A DNA stretch of 51,088 bases, the filler included, from Bipalium vagum (taxonomy: Eukaryota), in the NCBI GenBank assembly GCA_037834085.1. It is 3 parts of 3 records of this genome, joined end to end, with 100 filler letters (N's around TTAATTAATTAA, not from the genome) between each part and the next. Parts side by side here need not be neighbours in the genome. Positions count along the whole stretch, not along the records: positions 16,349 to 34,843 come from JBBMKC010023446.1; 2 more parts are not named here. One strand, written 5' to 3'. The notes under the pieces are model-generated. The model had not been told where the DNA came from. It did not search any database and saw nothing but the letters and a program-made list of their open reading frames with translations. This document shows, one piece after another, positions 790-51,088 of the stretch; position 1 is the first letter of the stretch, and each line of letters begins with the position of its first letter. The position numbers and the translations under genes are program-made.

Positions 790-2050
790 TTCAGTTTATA
801 TTCCAGAGATCTATTATTCTACTTGATATTGTAATCTTTGTATCTCGAATTCTGACTCCAATTGTTTGTTCGTCTACAGTGATAATCATTAATAAAAATA
901 GTGGTAGACAAAACCATTTATTCAGTTTTGGCTTTAATACTGCTGCCACTATTGGTTGTTCCTCGACTAGTTGTCTAGATCGCAATGGATATCCCGAGCT
1001 CATTTCTTCTATCACTTTCTTGCATCTGTTCACGTGCACTATAATTGAGGACTTTCCTCCTCTTTTGATTTTTAGTTGTAAATTCGTGGGAGTAACTTTT
1101 TCAACTATATATGATCCTTTGAAAATTCTTTAAAGCTTCGGCAATTCTTCTTTTCATTACTTTGTCTCCAACTTGTATTGAATGTGGTTTTTCGCGTTTA
1201 TCGTAATTGTCTTTGTATTTTTCTTGATTGTACTTCATATGCAATCCTGCTCTCTGCCAGGCCTTTTGATATCTTTCATGCATTACCATTTTATAATTTT
1301 CTTCTAAATATTGTGATGCTGAAAATTCCAGATCTACTGGCATGTTCTTATCTCTTAGATACATGAGATAAAACGACGTTTTTCCTCAGGATGGGTGCAC
1401 AGCATATCTGTAGGCAAATAAACACGATGCAATATGTGCTTATATATATTGGCTTATGTTGACAACATTTTTAATAAAGTACCATTAAATTTCTCTACCA
1501 AGCCACCTGTTTGTGATCGATAAGGTGATGTGTTCAATTTTAATATCGCGAACATGAAGCATATTTCTTTTATAACCACACTCATAAAATTAGTACCGCG
1601 ATATGTCAGCAACTTTCGTGGTGCTCCGTATCTAAAGACGATTTATTCGACAAATATTTTTGGCTACTATTTCTGCCTTTTGATTTTTCATGGGAAAGGC
1701 CACTGGTCATTTTGTAAAGTAGTCACACATCACAAAAATATACTTTTCCTCTTATCGTTTCTGGTAGTGGCCTACTACATCTATTGCTGTTAGCTCCATT
1801 GGTTTGGTTGGAACTGATATAGGCTGCAATGGTAAAAGATTTTTGTGCCTGTTCCTTGTCTTGTTTGATAGACTGCTATACTGCTATATATATATATCCT
1901 CTTCCACAAATTCTTTTTCTGGCTCTTGCTTTATTCTCGACAATGCGTCAGCATTCGCATTTGGTTTTTCAGTTCTATATCAGATTTCTGTGTCGTATTC
2001 TTGTAGAATTAGAACAACGTCTGATTAATCTGCTTTCGGTGTGAAAGAGT
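790..2050 (-). mobile_element. Decayed Ty3/Gypsy LTR retrotransposon, integrase and 3' pol remnant
   Basis: Frameshifted minus-strand translation gives integrase core motifs YGAPRKLLTYRGTNFMS, LNTSPYRSQTGG, LFAYRYAVHPS and FYLMYLRDKNMPVD, then QEKYKDNYDKREKPHSIQVGDKV. Confidence 0.85.
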
Positions 2051-14035: not shown

Positions 14036-15234
14036 CTAAATAAAGAATGATAAATTGTTTAAATACATTATTTTTAAACTAAAAAAATTTAAATTTGAAT
14101 CATTAATTGATTTAATTTATGCAAAGGTTTTTAATATCTTGCAAAATAAACATACGCTATTTCTAGCAATTTTTTCTTTTAGATAAGTCCACTATTTATA
14201 GATGGACTAAACTAATAAAAGAGGGAAAATCATTACTTGCTCGAAATTCCCCTGGACGTAAAAGAACCGCAAGAACGAAAACATTTATCAAAAAAATTAA
14301 CAGAAACCTTACAACAAACAAAAAAAGAAATCAGCTAAAAAGTTAGCTTTAGATTTCAAATGTTCAAGAGGAACTATTGGAAATATTATACATAATGGCT
14401 TGGGATTTAAGTGCTACAGGAAAATAAAAGTTCCCTATCTATCTGAGTCCCAAATCAATAGACGAAAGACGTGCGCATGTTGGTTAAGAAAAAGATTTAG
14501 TAAACAGGCAGTGAACAAAATAATGTTTAGTGAGAAGAATCTTTTGTTGCAGATGGTCAGTTTAATCCACACAATGACGTCGTTTATGCTGTGTCTAGAA
14601 AAGATGCAAATTTAAAAGGTGGACTTTTTCCAAAGAGAAAATATCCTTTGAAAGTGATGGTATGGGTTGGACTGACATATCAGGGTCTGACGAAACCTGT
14701 ATTCTTACAAACAAAAACATCTTTTGATACAAGATTTTATATATCAAATGTACTTCCAATCGTTGCAAAATATGGAATGGAGCTCATTGGAAGCGATTTC
14801 ATATATCAGCAGGATGGTGCTAGCTGTCACAGAAAAAAAGAAACGATTGCGGCATTCAAAAAGACTGGTATTTCAATAATAGCTCCAAATTATTGCCCAC
14901 CAAATTCACCAGAAAGTCTTCTTGATTATTTCTTTTGGGATGAAGTATCAGAGAGACTGAAAACAAAAAATTGAAAATCGTACAAAACTGATTGAAAAGA
15001 TTAAAGAAACAATTACACAAATTCCATTAAATATAATTCGCCAAGCCATCGATTCCTTTTCACAATGTATTTTGGTCATAGACAGACACAAAGAAGGGTT
15101 AATAATAAACTGTTTTAATTAAATAAAATTTGGTTTTATTCTTCATTAAATACTTTTAATTGAGTTATTTTAACATTATGATGTCTATGTCAAACGTTAT
15201 TCAAAGAATTATCATTCTTTATTGGCCACCCGTT
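14036..15234 (+). mobile_element. Decayed DD37D (maT-like) Tc1/mariner element
   Basis: Motifs MFSE, KVMVWVGLT, YQQDGASCH and CPPNSPESLLDYFFW (36 residues between the two D residues, one short of DD37D). Right end attatcattctttattggccacccgt(TA) has a partial inverted match aataaagaatgataa near 14039. Confidence 0.9.
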
Positions 15235-15597
15235 ATATTTATTTCCGGAAGTTATTGAATTTATTTGATTCGTCTTTTTAAATTTTATTGTAACTGATTG
15301 AAAAGATTAAAGAAACAATTACACAAATTCCATTAAATATAATTCGCCAAGCAATCGATTCCTTTTCACAATGTATTTTGGTCATAGACAGACACAAAGA
15401 AGGGTTAATAATAAACTGTTTTAATTAAATAAAATTTGGTTTTATTCTTCATTAAATACTTTTAATTGAGTTATTTTAACATTATGATGTCTATGTCAAA
15501 CGTTATTCAAAGAATTATCATTCTTTATTGGCCACCCGTTATATTTATTTCCGGAAGTTATTGAATTTATTTGATTCGTCTTTTTAAATTTTATTGT
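14986..15597. repeat. 306-bp tandem duplication (14986-15291 / 15292-15597)
   Basis: Near-identical copies with one visible mismatch (gccaagcCatc versus gccaagcAatc) and AACT microhomology at the junctions. Confidence 0.95.
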
Positions 15598-16248
15598 AAC
15601 TCTTGCGGTTTTTTAGACATAACCTGTGTTAAACTGTCATCCAACTTGATATACACATCTGTTTTTAAACATGATGCCATTTATAACTTATATGTAATAA
15701 AATGACCGGTAAACCTAATAACGGTTTGTCGAATTATGTAATACTTATAAATAAATAATGTTCAAAGTTGAGAATTTATAAAAGGATCTATTTTTATGAT
15801 GAAAAATTTAAACAAATTCACGATATCTCCTTGACATATCTTTATACTCATTTTCTGACATTTTTCTAACATTATTCATTAATTTAATATCATTACTTTT
15901 ATTTTGTTTTTCAATGATTTAAACCTTAGCACCTATCGTCTACATTCAGAGAATGAGAAGAAACTTGTATTAAATTAATGTGAAAGAATTTTAATTGGAT
16001 CTATTTTTTTCTAGAATGAAATCATTGATTTAATTTTGAAATATTGCGGTTTATTTTTAAAGAATTTAACAAGCTAAGTTTCATTAACCACACGGCCTAG
16101 AAAAGCTTGTTTAAATTTTTTTCTAAACAAACGATATTTTTTCTGTTAAATAGGTAATTAAAGATGTTCCTAAATCTGGTCAAAAGAGATATTGACCATC
16201 AGAATTATATTTGTAATAGAAGGAAGGTTTTTTTATGCAGTGCTTTAA

Positions 16249-16348
16249 NNNNNNNNNNNNNNNNNNNNNNNNNNNNNNNNNNNNNNNNNNNNTTAATTAA
16301 TTAANNNNNNNNNNNNNNNNNNNNNNNNNNNNNNNNNNNNNNNNNNNN
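16249..16348. other. Assembly gap: N44-TTAATTAATTAA-N44 artificial linker
   Basis: An identical 100-nt construct occurs at 34844-34943. The linker has stop codons in all six frames. Confidence 0.97.
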
Positions 16349-17079: not shown

Positions 17080-17545
17080 TTCGTAGGTACTGGAAAATCT
17101 TATTGATGATTACTTTGGGAAACATCTTAACTGGGCATGAGATATGTATGAGAAAAAAATAGTATAAGGTTTATAAGGATATTTTGGAAAAGATGGTTAG
17201 TCCATCTGGGAGACGATTTTTTCAAGAGAAGTATATATTTATTCTTGACAATAAGCCCATACATACTACCGATATATGCAAACCTTACTTGGAGGAGTTA
17301 GAACAGCAGAATATCCTTCTCAATCGCCAGATTTTAACCCTATTGAATTACTGTGGGATGAATTGGACAGAAAAAATCGACAACAGCCATCTTCAGCAAA
17401 GAGTCTATGAGAGACACTACAAATACAATCGCTTTCAATAACACCAGAAATTCTACCGAAATTTCTAAATTGTATGCCGAGGACTTGAGTAGCTGCTATT
17501 AAAAATCACGGAGGCTACTTTGATGAATGTTATGTATGATATAAA
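17080..17545 (+). mobile_element. Tc1 (DD34E-type) 3' remnant
   Basis: FILDNKPIHTTDICKPYL and a frameshifted PSQSPDFNPIELLWDELDRK. Confidence 0.85.
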
Positions 17546-17725
17546 ATATTTTTCTTCTTAGTTCGAATAAATAAAGAGGATTTTTAAATTTTATAAATAA
17601 ATTAAATCTAAAACATTTGTCATAAACAAAGTATTTTATTTAAAAATGCGAGTACTTTAGATCAGTAGTGTATATGATAAGACACATAAGTATTTTATCA
17701 CAACTCCGTAAGAACTTCGAAAGTA

Positions 17726-18420
17726 TTAGGTTGGTGCGATAGAAATTGCCGTTTTCGACATTTAAATTTAAATCAATATGACACACTCGTAACAAAAGTT
17801 TATTAATCAAAATAACCATTCGATTGAAAACGCTTTTCCAATAGTGAAACAAGTTTATTTATTCCAGTCAAAGAAAAGTCTGGTTTTCTGGAGGTGACGA
17901 AATCGTTAAAGGCAGTTTTGAAATCGTTCTGGTTCTTGAAGGTTTTTTCAAGAATGAATGAAGTCAGGTATTTGAGAAAATTATGAAAGGTCCGGTGAGT
18001 AAGTGGAGTGAGGTAGAATTTCGTATCCCAATTCGTGCAACGTGTGCACCGTCATTTTTGAGACTTATGATCTTGCATTGCCTTGCTGAATGACTGTTAT
18101 TTTTCAGTTGACTAATCCCGGGTTTAAACGTAGAAGCTTGTGGTTCATATTATCGATTTCTTAGGCATATTTCTCCGACGTAATTGTTTCATTTTGTTTT
18201 AGGAAGCTGAAGTGTATTAATTCCGCTCATGGCCACCAAACCGTCACCATCAACTTTTTGTGTAAATTCGGCTTAGGAAAGATCGTGGAGTTTGGCCACG
18301 ATTTAACCTCTGACTATATCGTTTCCTGTTGTCACATACCAGCCATATCTCGTCAAAGTAATGCTCGATGCATCGAAGACGTTTGATGACTCTCCAAAAT
18401 TCAGAAAATTGGTGGTATGC
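17726..18420 (-). mobile_element. Mariner remnant, 3' half
   Basis: Classic TIR (TA)ttaggttggtgcgatagaaattgccgttt, with ELGYEILPHSTYSPDL, QQGNARS and VMVTVWW-like motifs. Confidence 0.9.
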
Positions 18421-18833
18421 AATGGTCCACAAGAACAATAACCTTAAGAAAAAAACCTAGAGTACATTCAGAAATAAAATGACGGTCTTGAAAAAATCGA
18501 TTAAATTTTTTTCTACAGACAAAATCGACAGATCACTCAAATAAGTCAATAACAAAATTTTATTTAATTAAGAATAAACGAAATATTTTTTTAAAAACAT
18601 TATATAATGATTAAAACAAAATTAGTGAATTCTTAGTTATATTTATAAATAATAATGAAAATTAAATATTAAGTTGTCTCAAAAGCACCTCAGAAATGCA
18701 GAAATATCATAATTTGGGGTTTTCTATAACGATAAAAATGAAACGTTTAATTTGTCATTAATTAAAATCGTAATTATAAATATAACAAAAATATAATAAA
18801 TAATAAATAAAATAAAGATCATTTAAAAGCAAC

Positions 18834-19400
18834 CTGTTGAATTGCCCAGGGCATGGTTAGTAGAGATGCACCAATCATCGTGTTCCAAAGAGAAAAACTA
18901 TAGCCTGAAATCACTATGAAAAGAACAAAACAATCTCACATTGTCACCAAATTGCTTTGACTATTTTTAACATTTCCTTGAAGAGGTACAGTAAATAAAT
19001 TATGTGCAAATAAAGAAATTGACGAATTCAGAAATCCCAGCCGAGAATAATAACGATTACGGTATAATGATGATGACAAATCGACCTTAATTCTCAATAA
19101 TCAGTCATAAATTAAGACGTTTTTTACTGTATTTTCACTTTCTATTAAGTTCTCTGAATCTAAATGGTTTACATAATCATGATCTGATGACTCTGAGTTT
19201 CTGTAAAACGGAATTCAATAATCTTCGAATCATTTTCACAATCATACCTGACATCAGTTGCCTGTGAAGCATGTTCAGTGGTTTGTTGCACATAACCGTA
19301 ATTCCTGTTGAAAAGTAAATCAAGAAATACATTTAATGTAATACCTATTTAAAGTATATTTTAAAAGATTTGTTTTCTCATTAGTTCTTTGTGGAATCAT
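18834..19400 (-). CDS. SLC38A9: Lysosomal amino-acid transporter/arginine sensor SLC38A9, first five exons (19345-19400, 19248-19304, 19128-19200, 18940-19085, 18834-18897); 3' exons not found
   Basis: Four phase-consistent introns of 40-47 nt give MIPQRTNEKTNLL...RNRYYSRLG...QSNLVTIFSLWNTMIGASLLTMPWAIQQ. This matches the SLC38A9 motifs YYSRL and SLVTIF.IWNTMMGTS.LS.PW...Q. Confidence 0.92.
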
Positions 19401-19849
19401 TAAAATTTTATTATTTAATAATCTAAACAAAATAGTGTCATTTAAAATTCATCATATCACTTTAAATAAACAAAATGTAGATTTCATTAATGAAGATTAA
19501 TTTAAAAGTTAGAAATATAATTCTTAATAAAGTTGAAATGAAAAAAATGTAAAAATATAAATTTACTATATAAAAATACTATATTTATTTATAATTTGAT
19601 TTACTGAAAAATTCTTCTAACAAAAAATTAAAATTCAGAATGGGAAAAATTAACTTTAAAAAGGATATAATAAGAAATTAACATGTTAAATGACTGTGTT
19701 AGAAATTCTTAGCAAAATGAATTAAAAATGGTTTTTACTAAAATTCTTTTTTTTGAAGAAGTTTCAACAGTATAAGAACTAAGTATTTTGAATAATGAAA
19801 TATGCATGAGTCAGATTTAGCGTGTTGGTTAATATGAAAATATTGGGAT

Positions 19850-20010
19850 ATGGATACTGACTGAGAAATGTAGAATGTTTATATTTGCTGATGACCTTTT
19901 TACTGCGAATCTTGATTTTTGAAGAAATGCTCAGAATTGAATCTAAGATTTATGGAGCGGTAAATGGATATGGTGCCAAGAACATAAAATTACCACTTAG
20001 AGACTCAGAT
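19850..20010 (+). mobile_element. Possible LINE reverse-transcriptase fragment
   Basis: CRMFIFADDL, followed shortly by KIYGAV (FADD.KIY pattern of CR1/L2-type elements). Confidence 0.45.
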
Positions 20011-21183
20011 GATTTGGAGACCAAATTTTTACTCTGATCTTATTTTACTCTCTGAGGCAGTATTTTTGACATCCAGGATTTCTGTTGTTCAAAAAACAAA
20101 AGAAGATTTTTAGGTTAACTGAGTATTTTAACTAATTTTGCGCTCTTTATAGATTCTATTATTTGCACTTCCTGAGACAGAGTTGGTGAACTAAATTACG
20201 ACCATATCTTACAAGTCTCCAGGTAAGATACTTACCAAAATTAGGTAGTAAATAATTTTTTTAATTTATTATTTTTTTATTATATTAAATGAAAAGTAAA
20301 TAATATTAACTTATGTTATGAAGGAAATGATAAAGACAAGAATTTCATATTTGGCAGATCCCGATCTTTATTGATCATATCGAAGAACCGAATCAGTAAC
20401 AAGAAGGTTATTTATTAATAAAAAGCTTGAGGTCTATGATCTGCAATGGATTTCTTTTCCCAATGGTTAAAACTGATATATCACAAAAAATTCTCGAATA
20501 CGAGGAGTCACCATAATAATTAATGAGTCGTAAATTTGTTTCGCGGATTGTTTTACGTCTCAAAAATAATATTTCAGGAGAACTCGAAATTCGTGATTTT
20601 CAATTTTCATATTGATAATTTTTATTGACAACTTTGAAATGTGATATAATTAAAAAATTTTTATGTATTTATCTGAAATTTCGGATGTTACATTTTTAAT
20701 TCCTAAATTGTTTATTAACAAAGTTTAAAAACAGTAATGCTAAAATTTGTTTTATTTTTCACGTACTTATTGAACCGCCTACGTAGAATGAATAAAAATA
20801 TTTTAACGAATATAGACAAAAATTGAACCATGTTACTTGTGTTGAGGTTCGATTCCTATCTTATAATCTCTGTAAATAAACTTTTGGCAAAAAATAAAGT
20901 TTAATTAATACGCTGGCCAATTTAAAATTATACATTTTAATTATTAATTATTAATTTAAAATTAATTAAATAAATGTTGAAAAATAAATTTTAAATATTA
21001 CATAGAAGCAACTACTTATTTCTAATCAGTAGCATGTTATCCTAAAATTATCAAATTATAATAATTTTAATAAAATAAATTTTAAGTAGTATCAACTACT
21101 GATTTTTAGTCAGCAGTATGAATTTATAATACTTTAATTTTTAGAAATTTATTTTATTTTTAGTAACAATTAAATATAGAAGG

Positions 21184-21300
21184 TACGTCATGATTGACAG
21201 CTTAACTGGCCAATCAGAGACGTTAAAATGAACAGTAAAATAGTATATAAGCCAGCGAAACTTCATTATTTTTCGCCCAGAAAATTATCAGGTATGAGTT
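21184..21300 (+). promoter_or_regulatory. Compact Pol II promoter-like module
   Basis: TACGTCA (21184), GGCCAATCAG (21208), TATATAAG (21244), Inr-like TCATT (21263) and a splice-donor-like CAG|GTATGA (21292). Confidence 0.5.
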
Positions 21301-21780
21301 TGATAATTTTATTTTTGCTGACCAGGGTTTTCCCTGGCAAAGCTTTTTAATTAAGAGTAACTGCCTTGCAGTTTGTTTGTTAGTGTTTGATAAGACTGTC
21401 TGCTGCAGTTTGTTTGTTTATTAGACGGTTTTATTAAAAGAGTCTTACCCTCATTTTATTAATATACTTTTAAAGAAGTTATTTTTGTGTTTTTTGGTGC
21501 GAGCTCAATAGTTAAGCCCATAGCAACCTTAGTGAGGTCAGATACGCTAAGTAGTAGGTTTGCGCCAACACTTGTTATAAACCTCGAATGAGATTGCCCA
21601 AATGTACTATCTCTATTAGGTCGACCTTTACTCTTAAAATTGTTAGGTTTTGAGGGATAATAATAATAGTAATCGTTGAATAATAATAAATTTTTAAATA
21701 ATAATAATAATAATAATAATAAAAATAATAATAATTTAAAATTAATCATAATAATTTTTCTAAGAATAAATATTTTTTTG

Positions 21781-22200
21781 TGTCATTTGTATAATGACAA
21801 AATCCCGCTGTGGGGATTATTTTTTTGATCAGGCTAATGGATTCCTGTCAGGAATCCATTAGCCTCGACAGAAGAGAGACTATCTCAGCGTGGAGATAGT
21901 GAAGGGCTATTGGGAAAAATAACCGTCTCTGAGCGTAGAGATTGGTGATCATAGATCAATCTCTACGCATATAAAGGGAGACGGCTATTCCCGTTGATGG
22001 CCAGAAGTATCCAGATAAATCAGTGCGCAAAGAGAAATCAGTATCCAGATTCAGTACGTAAATGCCGAAATAACTGATTATGCAGCCGGATTTATTCGCA
22101 GTTATGCCGTCGGATTTTTGCAAGGGGACCCAGCGAGCTTGGGAACCCCTAGGCGACCTGAGAATGGCTTAGAGGGTGACCCGGGGACCCCTTGTCGCTC
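21781..22200 (+). other. Array of seven consecutive stem-loops; candidate structured RNA or element terminus
   Basis: Stems at 21781-21799, 21801-21818, 21831-21865 (perfect 17 bp), 21879-21900, 21905-22002 (nested), 22065-22114 and 22121-22194. GC-rich island with no ORF. Confidence 0.7.
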
Positions 22201-24210
22201 TTGGTGAGACTGATTTTGTTCATTTTCATTTATTTGTTTTTCATTGTTTTTAATTTTATTATTAAATTATTATCATTATTATTAAATTCGCATTCAGCGG
22301 TAGCGAGATTTCGGTTTATCCATAATAACATTCTTTTGTGATCGATTTAATATTTGTAATTGTTAATACAAATAAAGTTTTATTTAAAATATTTTGAATT
22401 GATTTTTGAGGTAGCGGATATTGTATAGTGGAGGATGTTTTACATTCAAAGGAGTTGAGAGGGATTTCGAACACGAGTTACACAAAGTGAGGAGTCATGA
22501 GCAGACGAGCACACGTTACTACATTTAGTATAATAGTAACAAAACTAACTATCCAAATTGACAATCAAATTATTTTTTCGTCTTTAGTGAATCTATCGAA
22601 AGTAAACACTATGATCTAAGTTTCAATTTGAGTCTTTTTCTACTAGCTTTTTTTCAAAAAAATCAGTTCAAATCACAAAACTTTATTGTTTTCACAATCA
22701 ATTTCACATTCAAATAATAAATCAAAAATCAGTAATCGTAACAAGGGAAAAATTAAGATAATAATCAATTTTCAATAATTTTAATCAAATAACAAAAGAA
22801 TTAGTAATTGAATTTGATCAAATTTCAATAAATGTCCATTAATTTCCTATCTACATTCAATGAATTAATAAATCGAATTTTTATTAAAATAAATTACAGC
22901 AAACAAATTAAAAATAATCCTTAAATCTCAAGAAAAACAAAGTATAAAAAAGAAATAGAGCGCTCTAACCAATTGATTGTCCTGATCTGAAAACATGATT
23001 AGCCATACAGAATTGTTATCAATCAATCAAGTCTTCTGTAAAAACAGATTTTCCGACAAATAAATATCTTCTTTAAAAATTGAATTTGAGGGGAGTCCCT
23101 AAGAGTTTGCTAGCCACTTTTATATAATTTTTTCTTCTGCCAATCATATAATAACTTTTGTCATTGACTGCAGTCTCCAATGGAAAAATGTTCCCATAAT
23201 TTAGTTGAGATTTCCAAGTGGAAGTTTAATACTAAACAGCTATTACTTGGGAAATCTATGATTTCAATAAAAAGTAGTAACTCTTTCTAAAGAGTTCTTT
23301 CCAATTTTATTATTATTAAAATTTTTAATATAATTATTTATTGTTAATATTTTATTATCGCAACTCTTAACAAAGCTTTTAATATGTAATATGTAAAACT
23401 TGCCATAAAAATTTAAAATATAACAATTATAAAATCAATTTTTAACAGAAAATAACTATTAAAATACTAATTATCTCAAAAAATGATTTTAGCTAAATAA
23501 GGGTGCACAAGAAATACGAAATGTATGAATATAGTTTGAGAAAAAATTATAGATTTTCAGTTAATTAATATAACGAGAAAGTGGGAGACAGTTAGTTGGT
23601 CAGAATGGCCTTTTATGAATAAATAGATGAACCATTTCTTCGATATACACTGCATCTCCTTTGTATTTGAGTCCCGAAATCATAGCGATCTTTTAAAACA
23701 GGTATGTATTGAGAGGAAAACTGATTTTGATAAGAAAACATTGTTAAATGAAATAACAAAAGTGTGGGAACAAGTTTTTATTGTATTTTAACAAGAACCT
23801 AAATAAAACTGATATTCTTATTTATTTGATTGTTGGTCTATATGACATAAATACATTTACAGCCTACTATTTTCTATTGACTGGTGCTTGTGATTGTTCA
23901 TTCAGAAAGCCATAAAAGATCTCTCTCACCGCCTCATTACCTATTGATAAATATAATATAATAAATAAATAAATAAAATGGAAAACGATTTTCAAAGAAA
24001 ATTACCATAGACCTATAGGTGAAATTGTAACAAAACCGATACTCACTACAATATGTTATAAGATAATATCTATGAAGAATACGTTTTAAAATTTATAATA
24101 AATACATTACACAAAATTCTTATGAAAAATATAAGATTATAAATAAAAATTTCATTGATAAAAATGTGTCCATTTTATCATTTTTCCACGTCACATTTTC
24201 TTCCTGTGGC

Positions 24211-24990
24211 CTAATCAACTTTGTTTTCCGTCGTATTAATCGAAGATGACAATAGCGATTGGTTTTTCTCAGAGACATTTGCTTTTTGCAAACTATCGCC
24301 AAAGGTCAAATAATTAGCATTCAAATGGCGCTTGGCGTGCATATCTCTGACTGAAAAAGACAGAAAATAAAATAATAAATAAATAATAAAAAATAAAAAA
24401 GTACCCATTGAATCAATATAGCCTGACATGGACAAAGTTACTCCGACTAATACTACACACATGGTTAATAATAATATAGCAACTACCATAACAATTCGGG
24501 CAATTCGTTTTTCTTTGGGACTTTGGGTTTCTTGCATATCAAATATTGAAGGGGAAACGTTATTTTTAAAATACGACGATAAATCTATTAATTTGCCATG
24601 TGGTAAAGTTGCATAGCAAATCTCACTTCTATCACCGATTGTTAAAGGAAATAAATTGGAATAAGATTCATCGTAGAGTAAATGAAGTATTTCTTTTTCA
24701 CTGGATGTACTGAAAGAGGACTTTTTTGATAGACCACGTGGCTTGGAATAAAACCTCGACGATAACGGAGACGTTAACAATGGATAAGCAGGATCCAAAC
24801 AACACAATGATTGCGTTAACGGATTTTGTCGATCATCCGTTTCTGATCGGTTGTTATTGTTCGGTGAATTATAGTTGATTTGGAATTGATCAATGTAAGA
24901 AAACTGATTTTTCTGTACATCGAGATTATTAATAGAAAATCCTCGGAGATCTTTTCTAACGTTGACATGTTCTAAATCCTGTTCATCCAT
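24211..24990 (-). CDS. Uncharacterised single-pass membrane protein; exons 24405-24990 and 24211-24350 (5' end uncertain)
   Basis: Long ORF with TM segment KRIARIVMVVAILLLTMCVVLVGVTLSMS. A 54-nt gtactt..tttcag intron (24351-24404) splices to GYIDSMVRDMHAKR. Confidence 0.75.
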   Translation of the reverse strand: MDEQDLEHVNVRKDLRGFSINNLDVQKNQFSYIDQFQINYNSPNNNNRSETDDRQNPLTQSLCCLDPAYPLLTSPLSSRFYSKPRGLSKKSSFSTSSEKEILHLLYDESYSNLFPLTIGDRSEICYATLPHGKLIDLSSYFKNNVSPSIFDMQETQSPKEKRIARIVMVVAILLLTMCVVLVGVTLSMSGYIDSMGTFLFFIIYLLFYFLSFSVRDMHAKRHLNANYLTFGDSLQKANVSEKNQSLLSSSINTTENKVD

Positions 24991-27868: not shown

Positions 27869-30800
27869 TCAGTGCGGAGCGGTGCCAATGCTGGAGGCGG
27901 TGCCACTGACAGTGAAGGAGCCAGAGGAGGAAGAGGAGACAGAGTGTACGGCGATATTGGCATTATCACTCAGCTGGAGTTTTGGCTGAGTCCTGCTGCT
28001 GTCGATGAACATTGTCGATAATAATTTCCCCGCTGATGGATCTGAGGGTATCGAATTGCTCTTGACCTCCTTATCATCGTCATCCATAGAAATCCATTCG
28101 ACTGATTTCTCTTTCTGACTGAGACGTTCATTTAAAGCTTTCAGCGCCAACTGTCTGAATTATTATTATATTCGTCAAAAACGAACGAGCAAAGAGAATG
28201 AAAGAGCAATTAAAAAAAGAAAGTTGTTTCGTCTTTTTCAAAAATATTTTTAAAATATTTATTTTTCATCATTATTACGACTTTCTTATTTGAAAATTAT
28301 TCGGAGATACCGGGATTCGAACCCGGGACCTTCACATGTGCATGGACTGCTCAGACCGCTGAGCTACATCCCCCGACTAATTTCAAATTATCTCACAATA
28401 ATAATAATAATAATGAATGGAAAATAAAACTGCTTTAAAATAATTTAAGAACCTTCAGATAGAATGATGAATAAAAAAATTTTCACCCACTTCTCATAAA
28501 TGAATTATTATAAACATATTGTGAAAATATTGAGATATTGTTATTAGAATAAAATTTCAAATTTTATTTAAAAATAAAATTGACGGAATTTTCTGAAACG
28601 ATAGACATTTACAATATTGATTAATAATCAACTTTATTATTTAGTAAAGGTGTGGATAAAAAAAAAGTTTGTGACTTGATTTTAGATATATAAAAAAGAG
28701 GTACATATAACTTTTATGAGTTCCATTTTCGACTTTCTTAATTAATTCGATGTAATATGAAAAATTTCCTTTTACAATATTATATTCTCAGTACTTATTT
28801 CATTTTGCCTAAAATCACTGTGTTCAGCTTCTCAAATGTTTTCTAATGAAATTAAACAATTTTATACTCTTACTATCAAGAAAAAAATATTATTTTGACC
28901 TGATTTTTCTCATTTTTTATTGAAAAAATATATTAATATTAATAATAATAATGGTTAATAATAATATTAACCAATAATAAAAATAGAAACAATAAAAAAA
29001 TAATGAAAATATTTATATAATAAATTCAAAATAAAAATGTTTATTTAGTTAATATATAATTATAAAAATAATAAATAATTTTGAATTTGTAATTGAGAAA
29101 ATCTCAGACATGCACTTATAATACAAGTTACTACTTAAAATAATGTCTACACTGGATAGATTTAAAATTTATACATAACCTTATCTATTTTATAAAAATT
29201 CAAAATATTATTACTTTTTTTTAACAATAAATCATGTTGATTAAAATTTTTATGGCGATTATAAAATAATAAAACACTTTTAAATGGAATTTTTAGAGCG
29301 TAAGACTAATATTTTTTTAAAGTAGAAACATCAAAATAATAAAATATTGTTTTTCTCTTTCAATAATTTAATAAAAAATTTTCAATAAGTTTGGAATATT
29401 AATTAGAAGATTCGTGACATTTGTAATCAAAAGAAAAAGATTTTCTTATAATTTTTGTATGAGGTCGTCTCATAAGTCTTTACGGAAAAGATGTATAGAA
29501 CAAAAATATTTTATAAAAACAAGAATATTTTATTCGATAATATAATGCCCATCGTTATTAATTATCTTTGTCCAACGTTCAGAAAAATTCCAATACCATA
29601 CTTGAAGAACTTCTGGTACTTTCTGGCGAAATGCACAGAGATGACAGCGCATTTGCTATTGAATTCTTTCCCATTTAAGAAGTGGAGTTATAAACAGAAA
29701 AGATAATAATCTGTTGGTGCGATATCTGCACTATATAGTGGTGAGGAAAAAGTTCTCAGCCAAAATCTTTTTTGACCATTTCTCATTGGTCATTTTTGAT
29801 GTGTGCGGTTTTGCATTATCTTGTTGAAAAATAACTACTCGTCCATTGAGCAGAGATGGTCTGATAAGTTTCAATTTATACCGTAGTTCACTTAGTGATA
29901 GTTTCACCCATATTCAAGAGCTCATATATATATATATATTATTCCCTTCATATCCAACCACACACAGAGAAGAATTTCTTTCGGATGAAGACCTGATTTA
30001 GCCTTTGGGATTGGTTCTTTATCAGAATCTAACCACTGCTTTTTGCGTTCAGCATTGACATATAAAAACCAATTTTTCACGACAACATACAACTCTTTCC
30101 AGAAATGGGTCTAGATCACGGCGAGTGAACAAAGACGTGCAAATTGTCACCCGATTCAAAAGTTGTTTTTCATCTAGAGCATGTGGAATCCATTTTCTGC
30201 ATTTAAAATTTTTCCCATTTGAATTAAATGGCGACGAACGCTTGCTTTAAAAGTGTCGGTCAGTTTTATCCATTCCGTTTTTTTGACAAAGATCCTCTTC
30301 AAATAGTCTATTTAGGTCGTAAATGTCTGTCTGTACAGGTTTTCCGAATCTTGGCTTGTCTTGCATGTAAAAATCTTTGTTCCGAAACTTCTTAAACCAT
30401 TTCTCACATGTATTAATACCATAGATAACCGTTCATAAGACTGTTTGGCATTTAATCCGCACTTAAAGTCATACAGTAGACAGACCCTTATCATTTCTTG
30501 AGTAAATCTCATCTCCAAGAATTAAAAATCTTAATAAATAATGTAAGAATACATTATTTTATGTAAAAACACCTTTAAATAATATTCTTTTGGATAATGC
30601 GCTTATAAATTATTTCACTTAATAGGTAGGTAGGTAAAAAAATACTACATAATACTATATGAAAAACAGTAAAGACTTGTAAGACGATCTAATATTTTCA
30701 AATTGAGTTTGAATTAGATAATATCAATAAATTTTATTAAATTACTAAACGAACCTTTTTTCTACAATTAATCAAAAATTCTGAATTAAATAGAAGATGA

Positions 30801-33800
30801 AGATTTGAGGTCACCTGATAAAAAGTTTGTTGCGTGTTACTAGTTAATGTACTAAATTTAGAAAACCTTTCTTATTCATAATATATGAAACGAAAATTTA
30901 AATGTACATTTAAGAGTTCAAGATTGAAAAAGAAAATGGAACGAGAAATTTTTGATCCATTATTCTTCGTTGATTTAAGAACAATCGAGAGTAAAAGAAA
31001 CATCGGAAAGAATTTTTTAAAAAACAGGTTTAATAAAATAAAAATGTTTTGATTAAAAGTGTAAAAATGTAAAACAAATCTTAATATACTCAACTTCTCT
31101 CTAACAACCAATTTTCATCTCCATTCAAAGGTTGAACTTTGATTTTTCATTTATCCAAAGATAAAGATGTAAAAGTTGCGCAAAAACTCAGACAAAAAAG
31201 AAAATCGAAATTTAAAAAACTTAAACAGTGAAAAACTAAAATCAATTTCTATTTTCCTTTTTCAGATTGTTTCCAGTTAATATATTTATTATTATTAATC
31301 ATAATTACAAAATAACAAGATATTTCATCTTGGGAAATCCCATAAAAACTTATTGAAAGTTCACAAAGAAAAATCAGCTTTTCAGAGAGTGAAATATTAA
31401 GAGTACAATTTTTTTAATTTATTTTATACAGTGCGACACAAATTAATTGCAGCACTAATTAATGACATTATTAAATGCCTTGAAAAATAATCAAGATTTT
31501 TTAATTTTATAAGGTGTATGTATAAGCATTACAAATTGAATAATTTTTAATTTCCATTTTATCATAATCAATTTTTTTTATACACCCCGCACTTAAATAA
31601 AACTTTTTTTTATCAAAGCACAATAAGTTACGTAGTCTTTATTAATTTCGTAATATTTAATATTAGTAAACAAAATTAACGAATTGTATAAACATTTTAA
31701 ATTAATATATTTAAAGAAAATTAAATTCAAAGCCAGAATAAGGAAAATAAGGTGTCTAGTATTTTTATACGCACTTAATGTAACTTTATTTGTTTTAGAT
31801 ATTATCCATTTCCAAAGAGTCAGATAAAAAATTTATGAAGGTAATTAAAGTTTTCAAACATAACCACATAGCTTAAAATAATTAAGTAGTGTAAACATGG
31901 GAAAAAGAAAGTCGCTAATAAATTTTATAATTTGCTTGATCATTACTAAAATATATTCTGCTTTTGTTTTACTGATAATTTTCCCGATTTAAGTGGCGCA
32001 CTCTGTATAGCCTTAATAACCAACATTTTTTGTGCAGTTAATAATACAATCGTTATACACTCTTAATTTAAAAAAAGGCTTATTCATTGTAGATATAGGA
32101 TCTGAAATTGAAAAATGATTCAAGTTCCAGACAACCGACAGAGTTGATAACGATATTTTGCAGTATTGTGTCAGAAATTTAAATTTTCTTATAAACCAAT
32201 TGAAAAGGACATCAAGACCACGGTATACAATCAGAAATTTTGTAAATGGATCCCCATACTCTTACGGATCGTATTTGCATGGAGCTTTTGGTTGTTTGCT
32301 CCTCCCTATTTACTAAGAACTAACCCGAAATTTTTCGTGTGATAACTGGTGATAATAAATGAGTTAAGTATAAGTATATAAGTGTCTTAGAAGAAATTTT
32401 CAATTCTAAAGAGAATGATTAGCTTCAAAAAAGATGATTAATGATTATAGATAACCATGGCGATTACTTTATTGAATCAAAAATTTTTATGCGTCATTAT
32501 TTTCTTGACAATATAATATTTGGTTTATTCTTATAAAATTTAAGAATGTTTAGTGAGAATATTTAGTCAGTTAATTTCAATGTACTTATTATTTAATATA
32601 AGAAAAAAATCACATTTTTTGAAATCCTATTATCTGAAAATTATTTCCACACCAACAAGCTCAATAAATTTATTCTTAAACCAAAAATGTTTAGATAAAA
32701 AGTTTTAGGGTTAAAATTCATGTCTACAAGAAATAAAATAATAATATAATTAAAATATGACAAAAATAAAGCAGAAAATCATTTTATTGATTTCTAATTT
32801 TAAAATATTGAACTAAAATATTTTTTATACAAAATAATCTTACTCGGATGACATAACAGTCAAGAAATCCGTCTTTGAAATTTGTATAATCTTCACTTTA
32901 AAATAATTAATCAATGAACGAAATAATGTTTAATCGAAATGTCTGACAAAATCAATATTCAAGTCAAGTAACAAAATAATTAAAATTGTTTATTAAAAAA
33001 TAATTTAAAGATTAAAAAATTACTTCCGTCGTTCTGAGTCCATAACGTCTCCGGATGAAATGGAAATTGATATTGTTGTGGGAGAGCTGATGTCATAACG
33101 ACGATCGATCTTCTTGCATATCTTTAGATATATCAAAAGACCAAATATGGAATTTGAAATTATAGAAACTGGTCCTTCCAGATAATAGGGAAAAAATCTA
33201 TAATCGATAAATCAGTAAAAAATTGAAATTCTTTAGTTAAAGAATAAAAATAAATTGAGTCAGGCAAAATTTATTATTATTATTATCTATTATTCTATCT
33301 TTAAAACTGACAGTTAAATTTTATTTTCCACCATATTTTATATCGCAGCTTTCAATAAGTTCAATCAAAGATTGCCTAAAAACTTTTACATAAATTTATC
33401 TTTTAGTCACAATTATCATAATACAACTAGTACACGAATTTCCTGCCATTCTTTAACTTAAAAATTATACATTTTATGAAAGTCAGAGCACGATCACAAA
33501 AAAGTACTGTACTTGTAAAATAGATTTTAAAAAATATATTTTCTATTCAGATTATGACTTGTGTTAATTATGTAATATTTAACAATTGCTTAGAAAATGA
33601 AATGAAGAATTTTAACTAATTTTGTACTCAAATAATACTATTAAAATCAACAATAATGTAATAAAATTACTCGGAGAAAGCGAATTTTTCACTCAGATCA
33701 CCAACATTTCCGTTGCCATGCTTTTGAAAAAATCTCAAATAAATCCAACTGATAAACAGCCCATTGATATACATAATCAAAACTGATGAATAAATTATCT

Positions 33801-34356
33801 TTAATAATATCAAGATAATCAATGTTGATAGGAACACAATAGATATATGCTTATTTCGAAATTTACTGAACTTTAAGTTCATCAAAACATTATCACCCAT
33901 TAATTGACGGCTAGCTACAGTCAATGCTGCTAGAAGTGGAATCATCCCATGAATTTTTGTATCAAATAAATAAACTTCATTTCGTGTTATAGCATAAAAC
34001 AGTATATACACAAAAACAGCATTAATTGCTGAAAAACAGTTAACTAAGGCACAGAATTTTATTAATTCCAACCATCCCCAAACAGGTAATAGAAGCTTTT
34101 CCATGAAAAATATGGTTATAATATCCAATATTATAAATAATATTTTTGACTCGAAAAATGAGAAGGTCAATAAGCTAAATATCCAAAAGCCTGGAGGCAA
34201 AATATAAGCAGGAATTATAGTTAAATATTGGGATGCAGAGTGAACAAATGAACATATATAAAATAATATAAGTAAAATACTAATACATTTTGTATATAAT
34301 GTACACTCTTTCATTAAATTTGTAACCAATAACTTAATTGATGAAAACCTAGTCAT
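27869..34356 (-). CDS. TMEM115: TMEM115 (Golgi rhomboid-like pseudoprotease, DUF1751); exons 33671-34356, 33024-33197, 27869-28154; 381 aa
   Basis: Motifs WGWLELIKF, SWIYLRFFQKHGNGNVGDLSEKFAFSEFFP and DSERRKQLALKALNERL...SMDDDD. Both introns are GT-AG phase 2 and restore the frame. Confidence 0.95.
28302..28373 (-). pseudogene. tRNA-Ala-like sequence with a disrupted anticodon arm (pseudogene or tRNA-derived SINE head)
   Basis: GGGGATGTAGCTCAGCGGTCTGAGC...AGGTCCCGGGTTCGAATCCCGGTATCTCC. The acceptor stem (with G3:U70), D stem and T stem pair. The anticodon region is 1 nt short and does not form a 5-bp stem. A TTTT run follows downstream. Confidence 0.8.
29460..30692 (-). mobile_element. Full-length decayed mariner in TMEM115 intron 2
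   Basis: TIRs tgaggtcgtctcataagtctttac and gtaaagacttgtaagacgatctaa flanked by TA. Motifs IRVCLLYDFKCGL, WIPHAL, QQDNAKPH and HHYIVQISHQQ (frameshifted HPPYSADIAPTDY). Confidence 0.92.
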
Positions 34357-34792
34357 TTGGATTTATATCAGCAAAATTTATAAACACATTAAAATTCTGA
34401 TGGCGGTTCTAGCTTCAGAGATTGAATAAAACAAAAATACATGTAATGTAATTTCTCAATATTTGAGATAGTAAAAAATATCCTAAAATTATTTTGTATT
34501 ATTGTAATCATATTTAGATTTGAAAATTTCAACTATTTATTTTTTATTAAATTCTTGTGAATTAAGAATATTCTTATTTTCATATAGTTTTTTTTCAAAA
34601 AAATTATTTATAGTTATAATTTTTTTTATAAACATCAAAATTTCAGGTAAAATAAAATTTAGTAAAAATTTAATTTTTCTAAATATTTTCCAAAAAACAA
34701 GAAAAACTATCTTGAAAACCATAACTGAAATTTTAGAAGAATCTGACAATGGAAAAGTTTTAAAATCGAAAGTGACATTTCTAGAATATTTG

Positions 34793-39942: not shown

Positions 39943-42900
39943 CTTTTAGTAGGAAATACCGACTCCCGGAATTCAGCCAGGACAATGTTTGAGTCTCCAA
40001 TTGTTGCTAGACGGATTCGAGTTTATCCCATTAGCAAGACAGTTCCCGTTCGAGCTTGTATGAAGATCGGTATTTATGGATGCGACTTCAACGGTCTGGT
40101 TTTGTTTGGGAAATATTAATATTTACATGTTTTTATATTCATACAGATGGAATAGTTGAATATTCAGTTCATCAAGGTCATTTTCTGTTATTGCATCCAA
40201 ATGATACATATGATCTTCGAGATTTAACCTATGACGGCATTAATAGAACTGATAAAGACTCTTCCGACCTGTTACTACAAGGAGGATTGGGACAGCTAAT
40301 GGATAACATTATCTATCACGACCCTGTTAGTAATGACCGAAGCAATAAAATTCAAGGATATCATTTGGTAGGATGGAATCGAAAATTAATATCCTCAAAA
40401 AAGGTCGAAATAACTTTAAAACTTGATCAAAGTAAGTGAAATATTTTATTAAAATATAANNNNNNNNNNNNNNNNNNNNNNNNNNNNNNNNNNNNNNNNN
40501 NNNNNNNNNNNNNNNNNNNNNNNNNNNNNNNNNNNNNNNNNNNNNNNNNNNNNNNNNNNNNNNNNNNNNNNNNNNNNNNNNNNNNNNNNNNNTTATATTA
40601 TTTATTATATATTTTTTTGATAAAAGATTTAATTATACTGTAGAAACGGTAAATTTTACTTGACAGACAGGTAAATTATAAGATGAAATTTAAGTATTTT
40701 AAAATAATAATAATAATAATATTTCATTTATAATTGTTTTTTAATTTTTCAGTTTCTATTTATTACCTTTAATATTTTGCACAAAAATATTGAAAAAAAA
40801 TAATTAAATAGAAAATTTGTATTAAAAAAATAATCATTTTCTTACGTTTCTCTGTGGTTAATTTTCGGTTAAAATTACTTAGCTTAATTATCAAAAAATG
40901 CAGATTATGTCTGAAACATCTAAAAAGATTGAAGAATTTATGAAAGCAACTATTTTGTGAAGATAAAATAATTTTTCATAATTAAAATGCATTATTATAA
41001 TTAAAAAAACAAAATCTAATAGAAACCAGTGATTTTTGCAATAATATTTTTAAGTATTATTTGAAAATTTATGTAAAATGAAAAGTTTTCGTGATTTTTT
41101 AGAATAAATTAAAATAATAACGTAAATATTATTAATTTAAAAATATTAAATCATTTAAAATAATTATAAAAAATGATATCTGAATAATAATTAAGTATAT
41201 TCATGTTTTTTAAAAGGTTTACAGAAAAAAAAACAACAACAACTTTCATTTTATTTAGAAACAATAATAATGTATGTCTTGCATAGTCCTGTATCAAAGA
41301 TGAGCATCTCGTTTGTTAATTAAATCTTTGCCGCACGGTTTGCAAATACTGTGTGTAGCCTCTCGTGCATTTCTTGTTAATTTAAATTCATGTAATAGAC
41401 ATTTTCGAATTTTTGCCGTTGTTTAATATTATTCAAACAAATCTAAATCAATACAATAAAGATTTATATCAATACAGGCTTACCTATTATAATTATTATA
41501 AAAATATTAATCGAAATCGTAATTTTTCTGTTTTTCTTTAAAGTTTGTATATTTTTAAAAACGAGAGTACTTTTACCACAACCTAATATAAAACTAACAT
41601 AAATGACATATTTTTATATGTATATGTGTGATTTAATAATAATATGTGATTTATTAAAATGACTTTTTAATTTATTAAATTCATTTGACATTAAAATTAT
41701 TTAATATGAGAATCCTTTAAAATAAAAACCTAGGTCTACAAATTAGGGTACTGGTCTGGTTTTTCAAAAATAGCAATACCATGACATCTTAAATTAAGTG
41801 GTGATGAATGCCTGTCTTATGTCCTTGTTTTTAGTATTAATCAAGTGAAACCGATTGTCATCCTAATAATGGATTTTGATAATAAGTTTCACATGCAAAG
41901 AGACTCTGCTCATCATCCAGTATTTCGAAGCTCCATTCCCATAAACTTTCTTTTTTATTCATGTGAAATATAGAATATTAAAAGCAGCTGATATTTATTT
42001 ATTCTATTTTTTTTCGAAAACTTAACTCCGGATTCTCATTATTCATCAGTGCACCACAATTAATATTTTATTAAGCATATTATAATTAGCGACTTTAAAT
42101 TTATTAAAAAATTTTAAATTAAAATAAGTTGGAACTCATTAACAATTCGTTGCATTGTCCGAGTGCTGCATCTCACGAGCATTTACGGTATCAGAATGAA
42201 CCATATAAAGATTGGCTTCTCCGTTTTTTGAAGATGCCACGTACGTTTATTCTTGTTGGATATATTTGAAAAACAGGAAAAAGAATTATAATAATTATTT
42301 ATTATAATAATTGTTAAATTAAGTAAAAATTGGTTCAATATCTTTCTAAGTTCTGGATTCATTTCAGAAACCTTATGACTTGAGTAATATTAAAAAATAT
42401 ATCTACCATCCGACCGAATAATAGGTTGTAATCTCACGAAAAGTATGAATGTATATAATTGGATATATTCCAATCAAAAAACCTCATAACCAAATCAAAT
42501 CTGTTTTTGTAGTTCAAAGCTGAATCCATTTTTGTGATAAATCTGAAGAGTATAATGATATGCAAATTTAAGGAAATATCCGAAAACAAAAGTCATTTGC
42601 ATAACCCGGATTCTGGGGGTATCACATGTCTTAGAAGGCTTCAGTGAATGATATCAGCTTTAACAAAGATTAAAATTAGAAGGATCTTTTCATAATTATG
42701 GCTAAAAAGAAGCTTGGTTGTAAAATAATAAGTATTTTTCCTTTATAACTACATGGAAAAATTTCTTAAGTCGTTGGATTTTCTATTTTGCTTTATAATT
42801 TCTTGCTCTATTTTGAAGGCAGACTTTTGAACTGAGAAATGTAGACAAAAGAAATTTAATTTTAAAATATCAAGAATTGTTTTTTTTGTTTAAATCAACT

Positions 42901-45900
42901 CAAATCTTTTATGAATTTTGAATAATATAATTCTCACACGGAACAGAATGAATATTTTATCAAAAAATTTTTTTGTTTATCTTTATATCTTTCAGGAATC
43001 TTGTCTCGTAAAAACGTTTTCTATACTTAGACAATTATAATACTATCTCGCCACGCCTAAGAACAATGAGATAAATATAAATATCAAAACACAACAGTTA
43101 ATGCTATTAGTATGGATGAATCGGTTTAAGATAAATTTATTATCTTGATGATTGGGAAATGTTTAGAAATATTTATCTCTCAAATCAGTTATCTATGGCT
43201 AGGGAAGTTTATTTAGAGCCATAATAAAAATAAATAATAATAATAATAATAATTACTGAATAAGGTTCATAGAGGTATACATCAACCACATAGCCATGAT
43301 ATTGCAACATCAGACTATCATTTATTTCAATCCTTGCAAACATCATTGGTCGATAAAACATTCAGAGATTCCTACACCAAATTGTACTTGTAGGGCTTTG
43401 TGGAACAAAATGATACTTCTTCGAAAGTGAAACTATGGTATTACCTGAAAGATGGTAACAAATAATGTACAGAGCAGTGCATTAATTTTTAATAAAAAAT
43501 ATTTTTCTGGTAGAAATGTCTTTGACATAATAATAAACGCACGAAGTTTCCGAAAAACTCAATATGTAGTTCATATTATATATATATATATCATATATAA
43601 TATATATATATACAATATATTATATATACATATAATATATACAAAAAAATATTTTTTTAATGATAAAATGAAGATTAAAAGTATAATTTCTAATGCAAAC
43701 GACATGACCGTTAACATTATTCAAAAATCATTATTTTACGCTAAGCAATTTCAAAGATATACAATTTTGGAATTTTGTCCTGTGCATTCAAGCGTGTACT
43801 CCATGCATCAATCATCTTCACTGTGACGACTGAAATGAATACAATACTGGAATAATTCCACTAACATAATATTCTACTCACAAAATTAGTAAGCGACCAA
43901 TTTAAAATCATGAACATTTTGAAGGGTAATGACTTTTTGGATACCCTATACAATCATTCGACCAAGATTGTATAATGCACCAAGTGATATCGTTCATTTA
44001 ATAAATATTTTTTAGTAAACAAAAGTAAAAGTAAACCAATTCCGTTAAACTATATTTCTAATATTAAAAATTAAAGCCTATGAAAAAGAAATTTTTTCCA
44101 CTACTTTAGTGGAGGAAAATCTTAAGCGTTTTTCAGTCAGTGAACAATGTGAACGAATTATTATCGGAAATTTAAATAGATGATAAACAATAATAACACA
44201 AGTATCGTAAGATATAAATATATAATCCATAATATGAGAATAACAATGGTTACCATAGAATGGTACCTCCTTACAAAGCGGTGTAATGAAACTTTAATTG
44301 TTAAAAGTGATTAAAAAAACTAATATATTAACAGAGTACATTTAATTTAATTTTCACCATATTCAGGTTTATTTGATAATAAATTGGAATTATTATTTAA
44401 CATATTTAATTTAATTAATATTTAAACCAATAATAGTTTATAATTAACATTAAAATAATTTTCTATTACATAAGAATTATTATGCCGGTTGTATCAGACC
44501 CGAGGAAATTAACTTACTGTCTGTCAATTTTGAATGAAAATATATTTTATTTCAATCTACAGGCCGTCTCAAAAATGCACACACTTTAAATATAAATCGT
44601 TTAGTAGTTATAAGTCCTTATTTCCTGTTTTATAGTTTGTTTAAATACTCCAATAACTGGTAAGAAATTACCGCTATTTTAAACCTATAAATTTATTCTT
44701 AAATGTTGAATCATGAAAGTAGGTTGAACTTTGAGCAGCGAAAATTTATTATCAAAAAGTACTTCAAGTTTGAAAACATAAAAGAGGTACAGAACTTGTT
44801 CAAGAAAGAATTTCAAATAGATCCTCCAACAAAACTGATAATCAGTCGAATAAAGGATAAATTCGAAAAAGACGGGTTTGTTAATAATGTCAACAAAAAA
44901 ATTCTGGAAGACGGAGAATATCAACAATTACACCTAAGGAAGAAAGAATACTGGGATTGTTTAATCGAACCCCACAAACATCTTTGATACAAGCAATTCT
45001 TGATCAAGGAATCTAGAACCGAACTTTTAAGCGCTGCTACATGAAATGCTTTATACTGACGTTAGTTACTTAATTATTTTAAGTGTGTATACATTTTTGA
45101 GACACCCTGAATATATTTTCTTAGAAACTTTTATTGTGCGGAAAGTCTTCAGTTTTTGCATCATGGAAGATGTTAATAATTTTTTGAATGAATATGATGA
45201 ATTATCTCATTTCAGACATATCCCAGAACATATATTAATACGGGCAAGGTGTTTTAATAATTAATAAATACTCACCCTATATTAACAATATCTTATAGAT
45301 TAAATATTATTATTATGATTATTATTATTATTATTATTCTTTTTTTTATTATTATTATTATTATTATTTTTTTTTTTTAAACAAAAAACATCACAATAAT
45401 TGAATGAAAAAATAATAATAAATATTTTAATTAAATTTCTATATTCACAGTCTAGTATTTATTTTTTTGTTTTCATATAAAAATAAAGTTAAAATAGGAA
45501 AGACATTAGAATTCATTTACTTGCATTAATTTCTTTATATTTTTTCTTTTCTCAATTGAATAGAAACATGCTCAAAGGAATTTTAATTATTGCAGTCTAG
45601 GGCTTATCAAGCAGTCAATGCCAATATAAGACTAATATGTTATAGATATTCTAAGTATTAATATACTTTAGCAATTATAGAAAATAATGAGATATCCATG
45701 AAGAATATAATGTTCAACGAAAGCCTCTTTTTTACGCAGTCAAGATTTTCATACCTATTAAAAGAAATTCAATTGATTTTTAAACGTTTTTTATTTCTCC
45801 CCGAATGTTTAAATTATACAAAATATCAATTTGTGAAAAATAAATAAATAATTTTTTTGAGTAAAAGAAAACCATTTTTGGTGGATAAATAAATTTGAGC

Positions 45901-50588: not shown

Positions 50589-51088
50589 GTACTTTCATTT
50601 TATATAATTATTTTTAATTTTTGTTTCAATTAATTACAATTCATAAATTTTATTTTTATTATTACTACTGTTGTTTTATTTTTACTTTTATTTTATTTTT
50701 CTGATTTATATTTTATTTATTTATTTTTATTTTTTTATTAATATTATTAAATATTTTAAAATTAATTATAATTAATAAACTTTTATATGTTTGAACTTAA
50801 AACGTTTTTCAAATTTTTTTTATTTCGTTTGTTTTATTTTTATTATTTTTATTGTATTATTTGTATTATTATTTTTATATTTTTAAATTAATTATAATGA
50901 ATAATTTTTATGTTTTAATTTTATGTCGAATGCAAAAATAATTATTGTTATTATTACTGTTATTTTTATTTTTCTTATGTTTATCCATTTTTAATTTTAT
51001 ATTAGATTTATGTCATTAGTTTTATTTTTATTTTCCCCTATTTTTTTCTTATTTTCATTAATATCATCAAATTATATTTTAAAATTAA

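Follow-up and report, generated by a model that had tools for sequence, protein, structure and literature searches.

The GC-rich, hairpin-dense island at 21781-22200 of our window (the whole 51,088-nucleotide stretch of Bipalium vagum DNA analysed here) lies within a 1702-bp dispersed repeat, 20840-22541, and probably formed a cis-acting RNA domain in the predicted R region, ~1.1 kb long, of a retrotransposon whose LTR this repeat likely is. The island folds strongly, the repeat stands out in the depth of sequencing-run contigs and ends abruptly on its right side, and motifs of LTR type are spread along it. We classify 20840-22541 as the likely solo LTR of an animal LTR retrotransposon from its ends and motifs, no internal region having been seen. 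The likely role of the island would be that of a dimerisation, packaging or export domain of the unspliced element RNA. The original prediction had left open whether the hairpins belonged to a new RNA gene, a non-autonomous retroelement, a rolling-circle element or an endogenous virus. A high-copy repeat with LTR anatomy supports the retroelement option; a stand-alone novel ncRNA gene is unsupported because the island sits inside that repeat as one of its parts.

Extent and copies of the repeat

Copies were collected as contigs of public sequencing runs aligned to 20800-22800; four runs (X1-X4) share words with 21150-22400. The run search listed none of RNA, which has no bearing on expression. 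Run X1 contributes 5,022 contig pieces on 20800-22800, most of them 80-95% alike (473 at 99% or more, 1,266 at 95-99%, 1,900 at 90-95% and 1,383 under 90%). Its summed depth is mostly 1,000-100,000 within 20840-22541, ~100-120 over an AAT tract that is skipped, and 79-156 from 22542 on, where single-copy contig depth in the same run is 22; summed depth is no copy number, and it is the contrast between inside and outside that marks a high-copy dispersed repeat. Pieces from X2, X3 and X4 show roughly 85-95% identity at low depth and carry other organism labels, being either true relatives or trace DNA.

At the right end, depth falls from 33,612 in bin 22475-22541 to 88.6 in the next bin in X1, and X2 shows a parallel drop there, 27.6 to 0.22. 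This junction exists in run X1, since an X1 contig matches 22476-22800 without difference; X1 may be the source of the window itself. On the left, the matching of X2 and X4 contigs begins at 20840, which is preceded by 170 unrelated letters in an X4 contig. No loose contig end fell at 22541 among the 24 of 871 listed. Contigs from X1 and X2 cross 22472 and 22523, and X3 contributes one contig covering 20854-21486 and another covering 22116-22298.

Coverage is uneven across the island. The bin at 22140-22206 reaches a depth of 72,563 in X1 and is covered in all four runs, and 81 X1 contigs join 22120-22195 to different upstream sequence. Several contig joints skip ~21960-22120, and other copies lack 22003-22119 or carry different sequence in its place. 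Hairpins 1-3 may be specific to a subfamily, since the bins that contain them (21738-21871) have coverage in X1 alone, and less of it there. Judged from these contigs, the family is modular, with a fixed core at 22120-22195 and exchangeable neighbouring hairpins. Exact-pattern scans for further copies returned none in viral contigs and none in metagenome contigs, a BLAST of the island against phages gave no match, and the window holds no second copy of the repeat.

LTR-like anatomy

The features that point to an LTR are as follows.

20840..22541 (+), the complete repeat (1702 bp), a likely solo LTR, set by depth limits and TGTT...AACA ends
20840..20846 (+), 5' terminus TGTTGAG, 7/7 to the TGTTRNR integrase-site consensus (PMC3601003)
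20840..21273 (+), predicted U3, 21% GC, its boundary placed from the TATA position
21210..21214 (+), CCAAT box, in the part with highest X1 depth and also covered by X3 and X4
21244..21251 (+), TATA box, sole pattern match in 20800-22600
22371..22376 (+), AATAAA, followed by a GT-rich tract (G+T 70% at 22396-22445 vs 49% in the window)
22535..22541 (+), 3' terminus AGTAACA, 6/7 to the YNYAACA consensus (PMC3601003)

The ends form a terminal inverted repeat, TGTT...AACA, of 4 bp, and the + strand carries CCAAT, TATA, AATAAA and the GT-rich tract in that order. Such motifs are listed as conserved in LTRs in PMC3601003, which also ties conservation within long R regions to stem-loops. The upstream promoter that accompanied the original prediction would, by these motif matches, be the CCAAT/TATA promoter of the LTR itself. 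In one X2 contig only, the letters next to 20840 on its upstream side look like a polypurine tract: a run of four T, then 13 purines, then a single base.

Other parts of the anatomy are missing here. No target-site duplication of 4-6 bp accompanies the ends 20840/22541, which makes it less certain that the copy arose simply as a solo LTR; such a duplication would equally be lost through decay or if two loci had recombined. The left end is itself uncertain because a unit starting at 20831 would match its right end over a 7-bp inverted repeat (20831-20837, 22535-22541), together with a 6-mer bearing two mismatches. This 7-bp inverted match, 9 bp upstream of the left end adopted above, may be where the subfamily truly begins. 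The present copy has no primer site after it, as is to be expected of a solo LTR, no polypurine tract before it and no adjacent retroelement gene, and flanking frames inspected by eye over 17500-24300 include no retroelement gene. A primer-binding site or a link to gag/pol was seen in no copy. This copy is likely an inert relic without an internal region.

B-box-like motifs of tRNA type lie in opposite orientation near both LTR ends, at 20846-20856 (+) and about 22461-22472 (-). Rfam and tRNA searches gave no tRNA match in 20840-22541 (one of the Rfam searches spanned 21000-22500).

Fold of the hairpin island

The GC content of 21781-22200 is 47% against 27% window-wide, as the claim of a GC-rich island had it. 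On the + strand this segment folds at -164.7 kcal/mol (z -7.58) and on the - strand at -148.1 kcal/mol (z -7.01), and 0 of 100 dinucleotide shuffles folded equally well in either case. The structured parts of the island are listed below.

21781..21818 (+), hairpins 1 and 2, mean pair probability 0.96 and 0.92
21831..21865 (+), palindrome of 35 nt with 17-nt arms, candidate dimerisation site
21879..21900 (+), hairpin 4, mean pair probability 0.95
21905..22002 (+), nested stem of 98 nt with an A-rich 8-nt bulge, z -7.6, coverage partial in X2
22003..22119 (+), variable, weakly folded stretch with hairpin 6 and an 11-nt direct repeat (22006, 22040)
22120..22195 (+), GC-rich terminal stem-loop, the most widely shared part of the island, z -2.4, covered in 4/4 runs

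All seven inverted repeats that had been read by eye are present in the sequence (21781-22195), and six of the seven stem-loops hold in the fold. Hairpins 1-4 (21781-21902) reach z -9.1, the segment with the nested stem (21904-22004) z -7.6, and that with the last stem-loop (22118-22210) z -2.4, with 7 of 200 shuffles equally good. The exception is hairpin 6 (22065-22113), which has 11 Watson-Crick pairs but lies 6.5 kcal/mol above the best fold, with an ensemble probability of ~0; its segment, 22003-22120, folds at chance level (z +0.14, 109 of 200 shuffles equally good). The palindrome is perfect in its 17-nt arms, as described, with a spacer of 1 nt, and its predicted self-duplex is worth -63.3 kcal/mol vs 2 x -25.4 as hairpins. 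The island had also been called free of ORFs: no plausible gene is encoded, although stop-free frames of 62-70 codons do cross it. The structure begins ~500 nt upstream of the limits first drawn for the island.

No Rfam family accounts for this domain. At the gathering score Rfam returned no match to the island, and its only match in the window was a tRNA at 28302-28373. With E values up to 10 admitted over 21000-22500, seven matches to miRNA and snoRNA families appeared (best E 0.28), at chance level and far below gathering. The absence of a hammerhead core (CUGANGA) was confirmed on both strands, and a scan with core-motif patterns found no twister, pistol or HDV core; rolling-circle and ribozyme readings have no support from Rfam or core motifs.

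Predicted transcript of an active element

The positions of the TATA box and AATAAA would place the island within a predicted R region of ~1.1 kb. In an active element, RNA polymerase II would start ~30 nt past the TATA box, near 21274, and the transcript would end ~20 nt past AATAAA (22371). Outside the island, this predicted RNA carries the following features.

21281..21310 (+), first predicted transcript hairpin, with a donor-like site (GT 21292) at its apex, z -3.4 for 21272-21345
21322..21337 (+), predicted hairpin upstream of the island
21386..21438 (+), long hairpin upstream of the island, its G:U pairs favouring the + strand
21657..21755 (+), (AAT)n tract, predicted pairing partner of the T-rich tract that follows the island
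22211..22297 (+), T-rich tract with an acceptor-like AG at its end (22296-22297), one of five candidate acceptors

The donor-like pattern at 21292 is the only match in the element and lies ~1,080 nt from AATAAA. If this donor and the acceptor at 22297 were used, the island would be lost from spliced mRNA and kept only in unspliced genomic RNA. No copy of exon 1 was found at the tail of the predicted intron (best match 11/18), and the LTR tail (22440-22541) shows no significant fold (z -0.45 on the + strand, -1.26 on the -).

We propose that the A-rich and U-rich tracts on its two sides would close the island into a domain of several hairpins. The AAT and T-rich tracts pair at -30.6 kcal/mol vs -15.6 +/- 3.9 with the T-rich tract shuffled (0 of 200 equally good), and the whole-transcript fold gives the same closure of the island. 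Four of 1,081 90-mers of the window paired equally well in the AAT-tract test, and because both tracts are of low complexity the closure is a hint only. Within the domain, the palindrome at 21831-21865 would pair two RNA copies, and the widely shared GC-rich stem-loop at 22120-22195 would be the core protein-binding signal (Gag, packaging or export).

Strand preference appears in the fold model clearer in the upstream hairpin than inside the island: 21370-21455 folds at -20.5 kcal/mol (z -3.2) on the + strand and at -9.2 kcal/mol (z -1.4) on the -. The motif of a 6-bp hairpin at 21359-21373 is found again in loose contig ends from X1, X2 and X4, which suggests a conserved early-R element.

Possible constraint on the structure and alternative explanations

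We compared the fold with 14 places of copy difference in 21781-22200, taken from the 40 of 144 rows that the alignment tool selected for listing. Eight of these 14 lie in loops or bulges (five in hairpin loops, three in bulges), where 0.295 of positions are unpaired (binomial P 0.029); in 21781-22002 alone the count is six of nine listed places (binomial P 0.0095). A hypergeometric test of variable against paired places (P 0.001) was set aside as biased, because a private stem change makes a place look unpaired, and the binomial was used. Among the remainder, three places are a stem mismatch or wobble here and a Watson-Crick pair in other copies (read by hand), one, within a peripheral helix, stays paired as G:U, and two touch lone pairs. 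None of the 14 listed places breaks a strong helix, and none shows a two-sided compensatory change. Selection on the + strand RNA structure of the island has, on this comparison, modest support. The original prediction had read G:U wobbles on the + strand as a sign of RNA-level selection. That argument is weak inside the island, because two + strand wobbles are Watson-Crick pairs in many other copies and G:U pairs number 12 in the + fold vs 11 in the - fold.

The repeat could be an LTR whose hairpins are mostly by-products of duplication or template switching at the DNA level, with no selected RNA role. Perfect palindromes can also arise through DNA template switching. The two strands fold almost alike (z -7.6 and -7.0) with G:U counts of 12 and 11, two-sided compensatory change is absent among the 14 listed places, and hairpins 1-3 are confined to X1, all as this origin would have it. 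We nevertheless consider it unlikely: copy differences favour loops, the hairpin arms are mutually unrelated, the core at 22120-22195 is kept in 81 contigs while its upstream neighbour is swapped, and the upstream hairpin at 21370-21455 is strand-biased. Another kind of element altogether, a non-LTR or non-autonomous one with a catalytic or circular RNA (a retrozyme, a Penelope-type pseudo-LTR or a rolling-circle element), would share the high copy number, dense structure, missing coding frame and missing target-site duplication. It would be hard to reconcile with the Pol II promoter, poly(A) signal, TG...CA ends and polypurine flank, which are LTR traits, or with the absence of CUGANGA on either strand, of twister, pistol and HDV cores and of any Rfam ribozyme match, and we regard it as improbable.

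The LTR anatomy might instead be partly coincidental, the 1.7-kb unit being a composite of at least two nested repeats, for example with a small tRNA-promoter LTR at its right end. B-box-like motifs near both ends (20846 +, 22472 -), the missing target-site duplication and the uneven depth along the unit are what such a composite might leave; X1 and X2 contigs nonetheless align across 22472 and 22523, X3 contigs span 20854-21486 and 22116-22298, and the promoter and poly(A) motifs stand in LTR order, so that a composite seems very improbable. A host ncRNA gene with its own promoter (telomerase RNA, a 7SK-like RNA or a new one) would explain the CCAAT and TATA boxes upstream of a strong fold. 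It is already largely refuted, and we give it hardly any weight, since the repeat is hundreds- to thousands-fold over single-copy depth, most of its copies diverge by 5-20%, with modules exchanged between them, and no Rfam match comes near the gathering score. We retain a structured R region within an LTR as the probable explanation.

Relation to known elements

As it stands, the finding is a repeat annotation, a structured LTR and no new RNA gene. To our knowledge, few retrotransposons other than yeast Ty1/Ty3 have had their cis-acting RNA signals mapped, and this high-copy family, which combines a fixed core with hairpin modules that vary, lends itself to the study of covariation. Our search of the literature met no paper on how the RNA of planarian LTRs folds; the family may already be catalogued in Repbase or Dfam.

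The LTR resembles those of animal Metaviridae (Ty3/gypsy) as portrayed in PMC3601003 in its TGTT...AACA ends, TATA-like box, AATAAA, GT-rich tract and long-R stem-loops. It differs in having a predicted R of ~1.1 kb with a dense multi-hairpin domain, and assignment to a superfamily (gypsy, BEL/Pao or copia) needs the internal region, of which none was seen. Planarian genomes are reported to exceed 70% AT with abundant LTR/Gypsy elements (PMC11410931), and the composition of the window fits. By description only, the family can be set beside Burro/GYPSM1, giant gypsy-like planarian elements that likewise combine high copy number and a long LTR in an AT-rich animal genome (PMC6431247). These encode a giant polyprotein with gag, env-like, PR-RT-RH-IN and accessory domains, and their internal region of up to 25 kb in a total of over 30 kb implies LTRs longer than 1.7 kb; no LTR RNA structure was met in that description.

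HTLV-1, HIV and MLV are known to have structured R regions (PMC2664473). Foamy viruses control their LTRs through a splice donor that precedes the poly(A) signal and is gated by RNA structure (PMC3694450), and the layout predicted here, a donor before the poly(A) signal and a structured R, would work like foamy virus R and the HTLV-1 Rex response element (PMC2664473). Unlike in those vertebrate retroviruses, donor and AATAAA are ~1,080 nt apart here, and the likeness drawn is one of layout, not of sequence or of a known regulatory protein. In Ty1, palindromes have been suggested to mediate RNA dimers, while the R region is reported dispensable for retrosome localisation (PMC4974528), so a packaging role of R is not general. 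If the island proved intron-resident and protein-responsive, RNA control in the style of complex retroviruses would extend to an invertebrate retrotransposon. It is tempting, though doubtful at present, to go further and picture an invertebrate LTR retrotransposon with a 400-nt multi-hairpin RNA switch inside an LTR intron, with a palindromic dimer site and swappable hairpins around a fixed core, exerting control of unspliced RNA export and packaging like that of Rev/Rex response elements outside vertebrate retroviruses.

Two further groups were considered. Helenus tRNA-bearing TRIMs (PMC10886601) also occur as solo LTRs, and B-box-like motifs lie near both ends here; membership in Helenus (TRIMp3) was rejected, as its LTRs are described as not exceeding about 323 bp and as containing a segment derived from a tRNA, and the present LTR is 1.7 kb with Pol II motifs and no tRNA match. 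Retrozymes (PMC4918200) are likewise non-coding, structured and repeated retroelement sequences; membership among retrozymes or hammerhead elements was rejected because the hammerhead core (CUGANGA plus GAAA) is absent.

Other features of the window

The window is AT-rich animal sequence with host exons and Tc1/mariner fragments. Transposase fragments of Tc1/mariner type lie at 14301-14974, 44703-44987 and 47132-47464 (Pfam HTH_Tnp_Tc3_2, weak; DUF4817; DDE_3). Two broken frames at 791-1385 (-) have no Pfam match; we take them to resemble the end of a gypsy integrase. The tRNA-like sequence at 28302-28373 (-), scored at 42.5 bits by Rfam and not called by ARAGORN, may be a tRNA-bearing repeat. 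The 306-bp tandem duplicate at 14986-15601 is near-perfect and a possible assembly artefact, as are the N gaps near 16249, 34843 and 40440, at least two of which are bordered by the same 12-letter AT filler. Host genes are represented at 33667-34362 (-), 40035-40439 (+) and 50270-50617 (+) by a TMEM115-like (DUF1751) frame and two exons of a discoidin-domain receptor; the TMEM115-like frame is very divergent, with only one close relative found.
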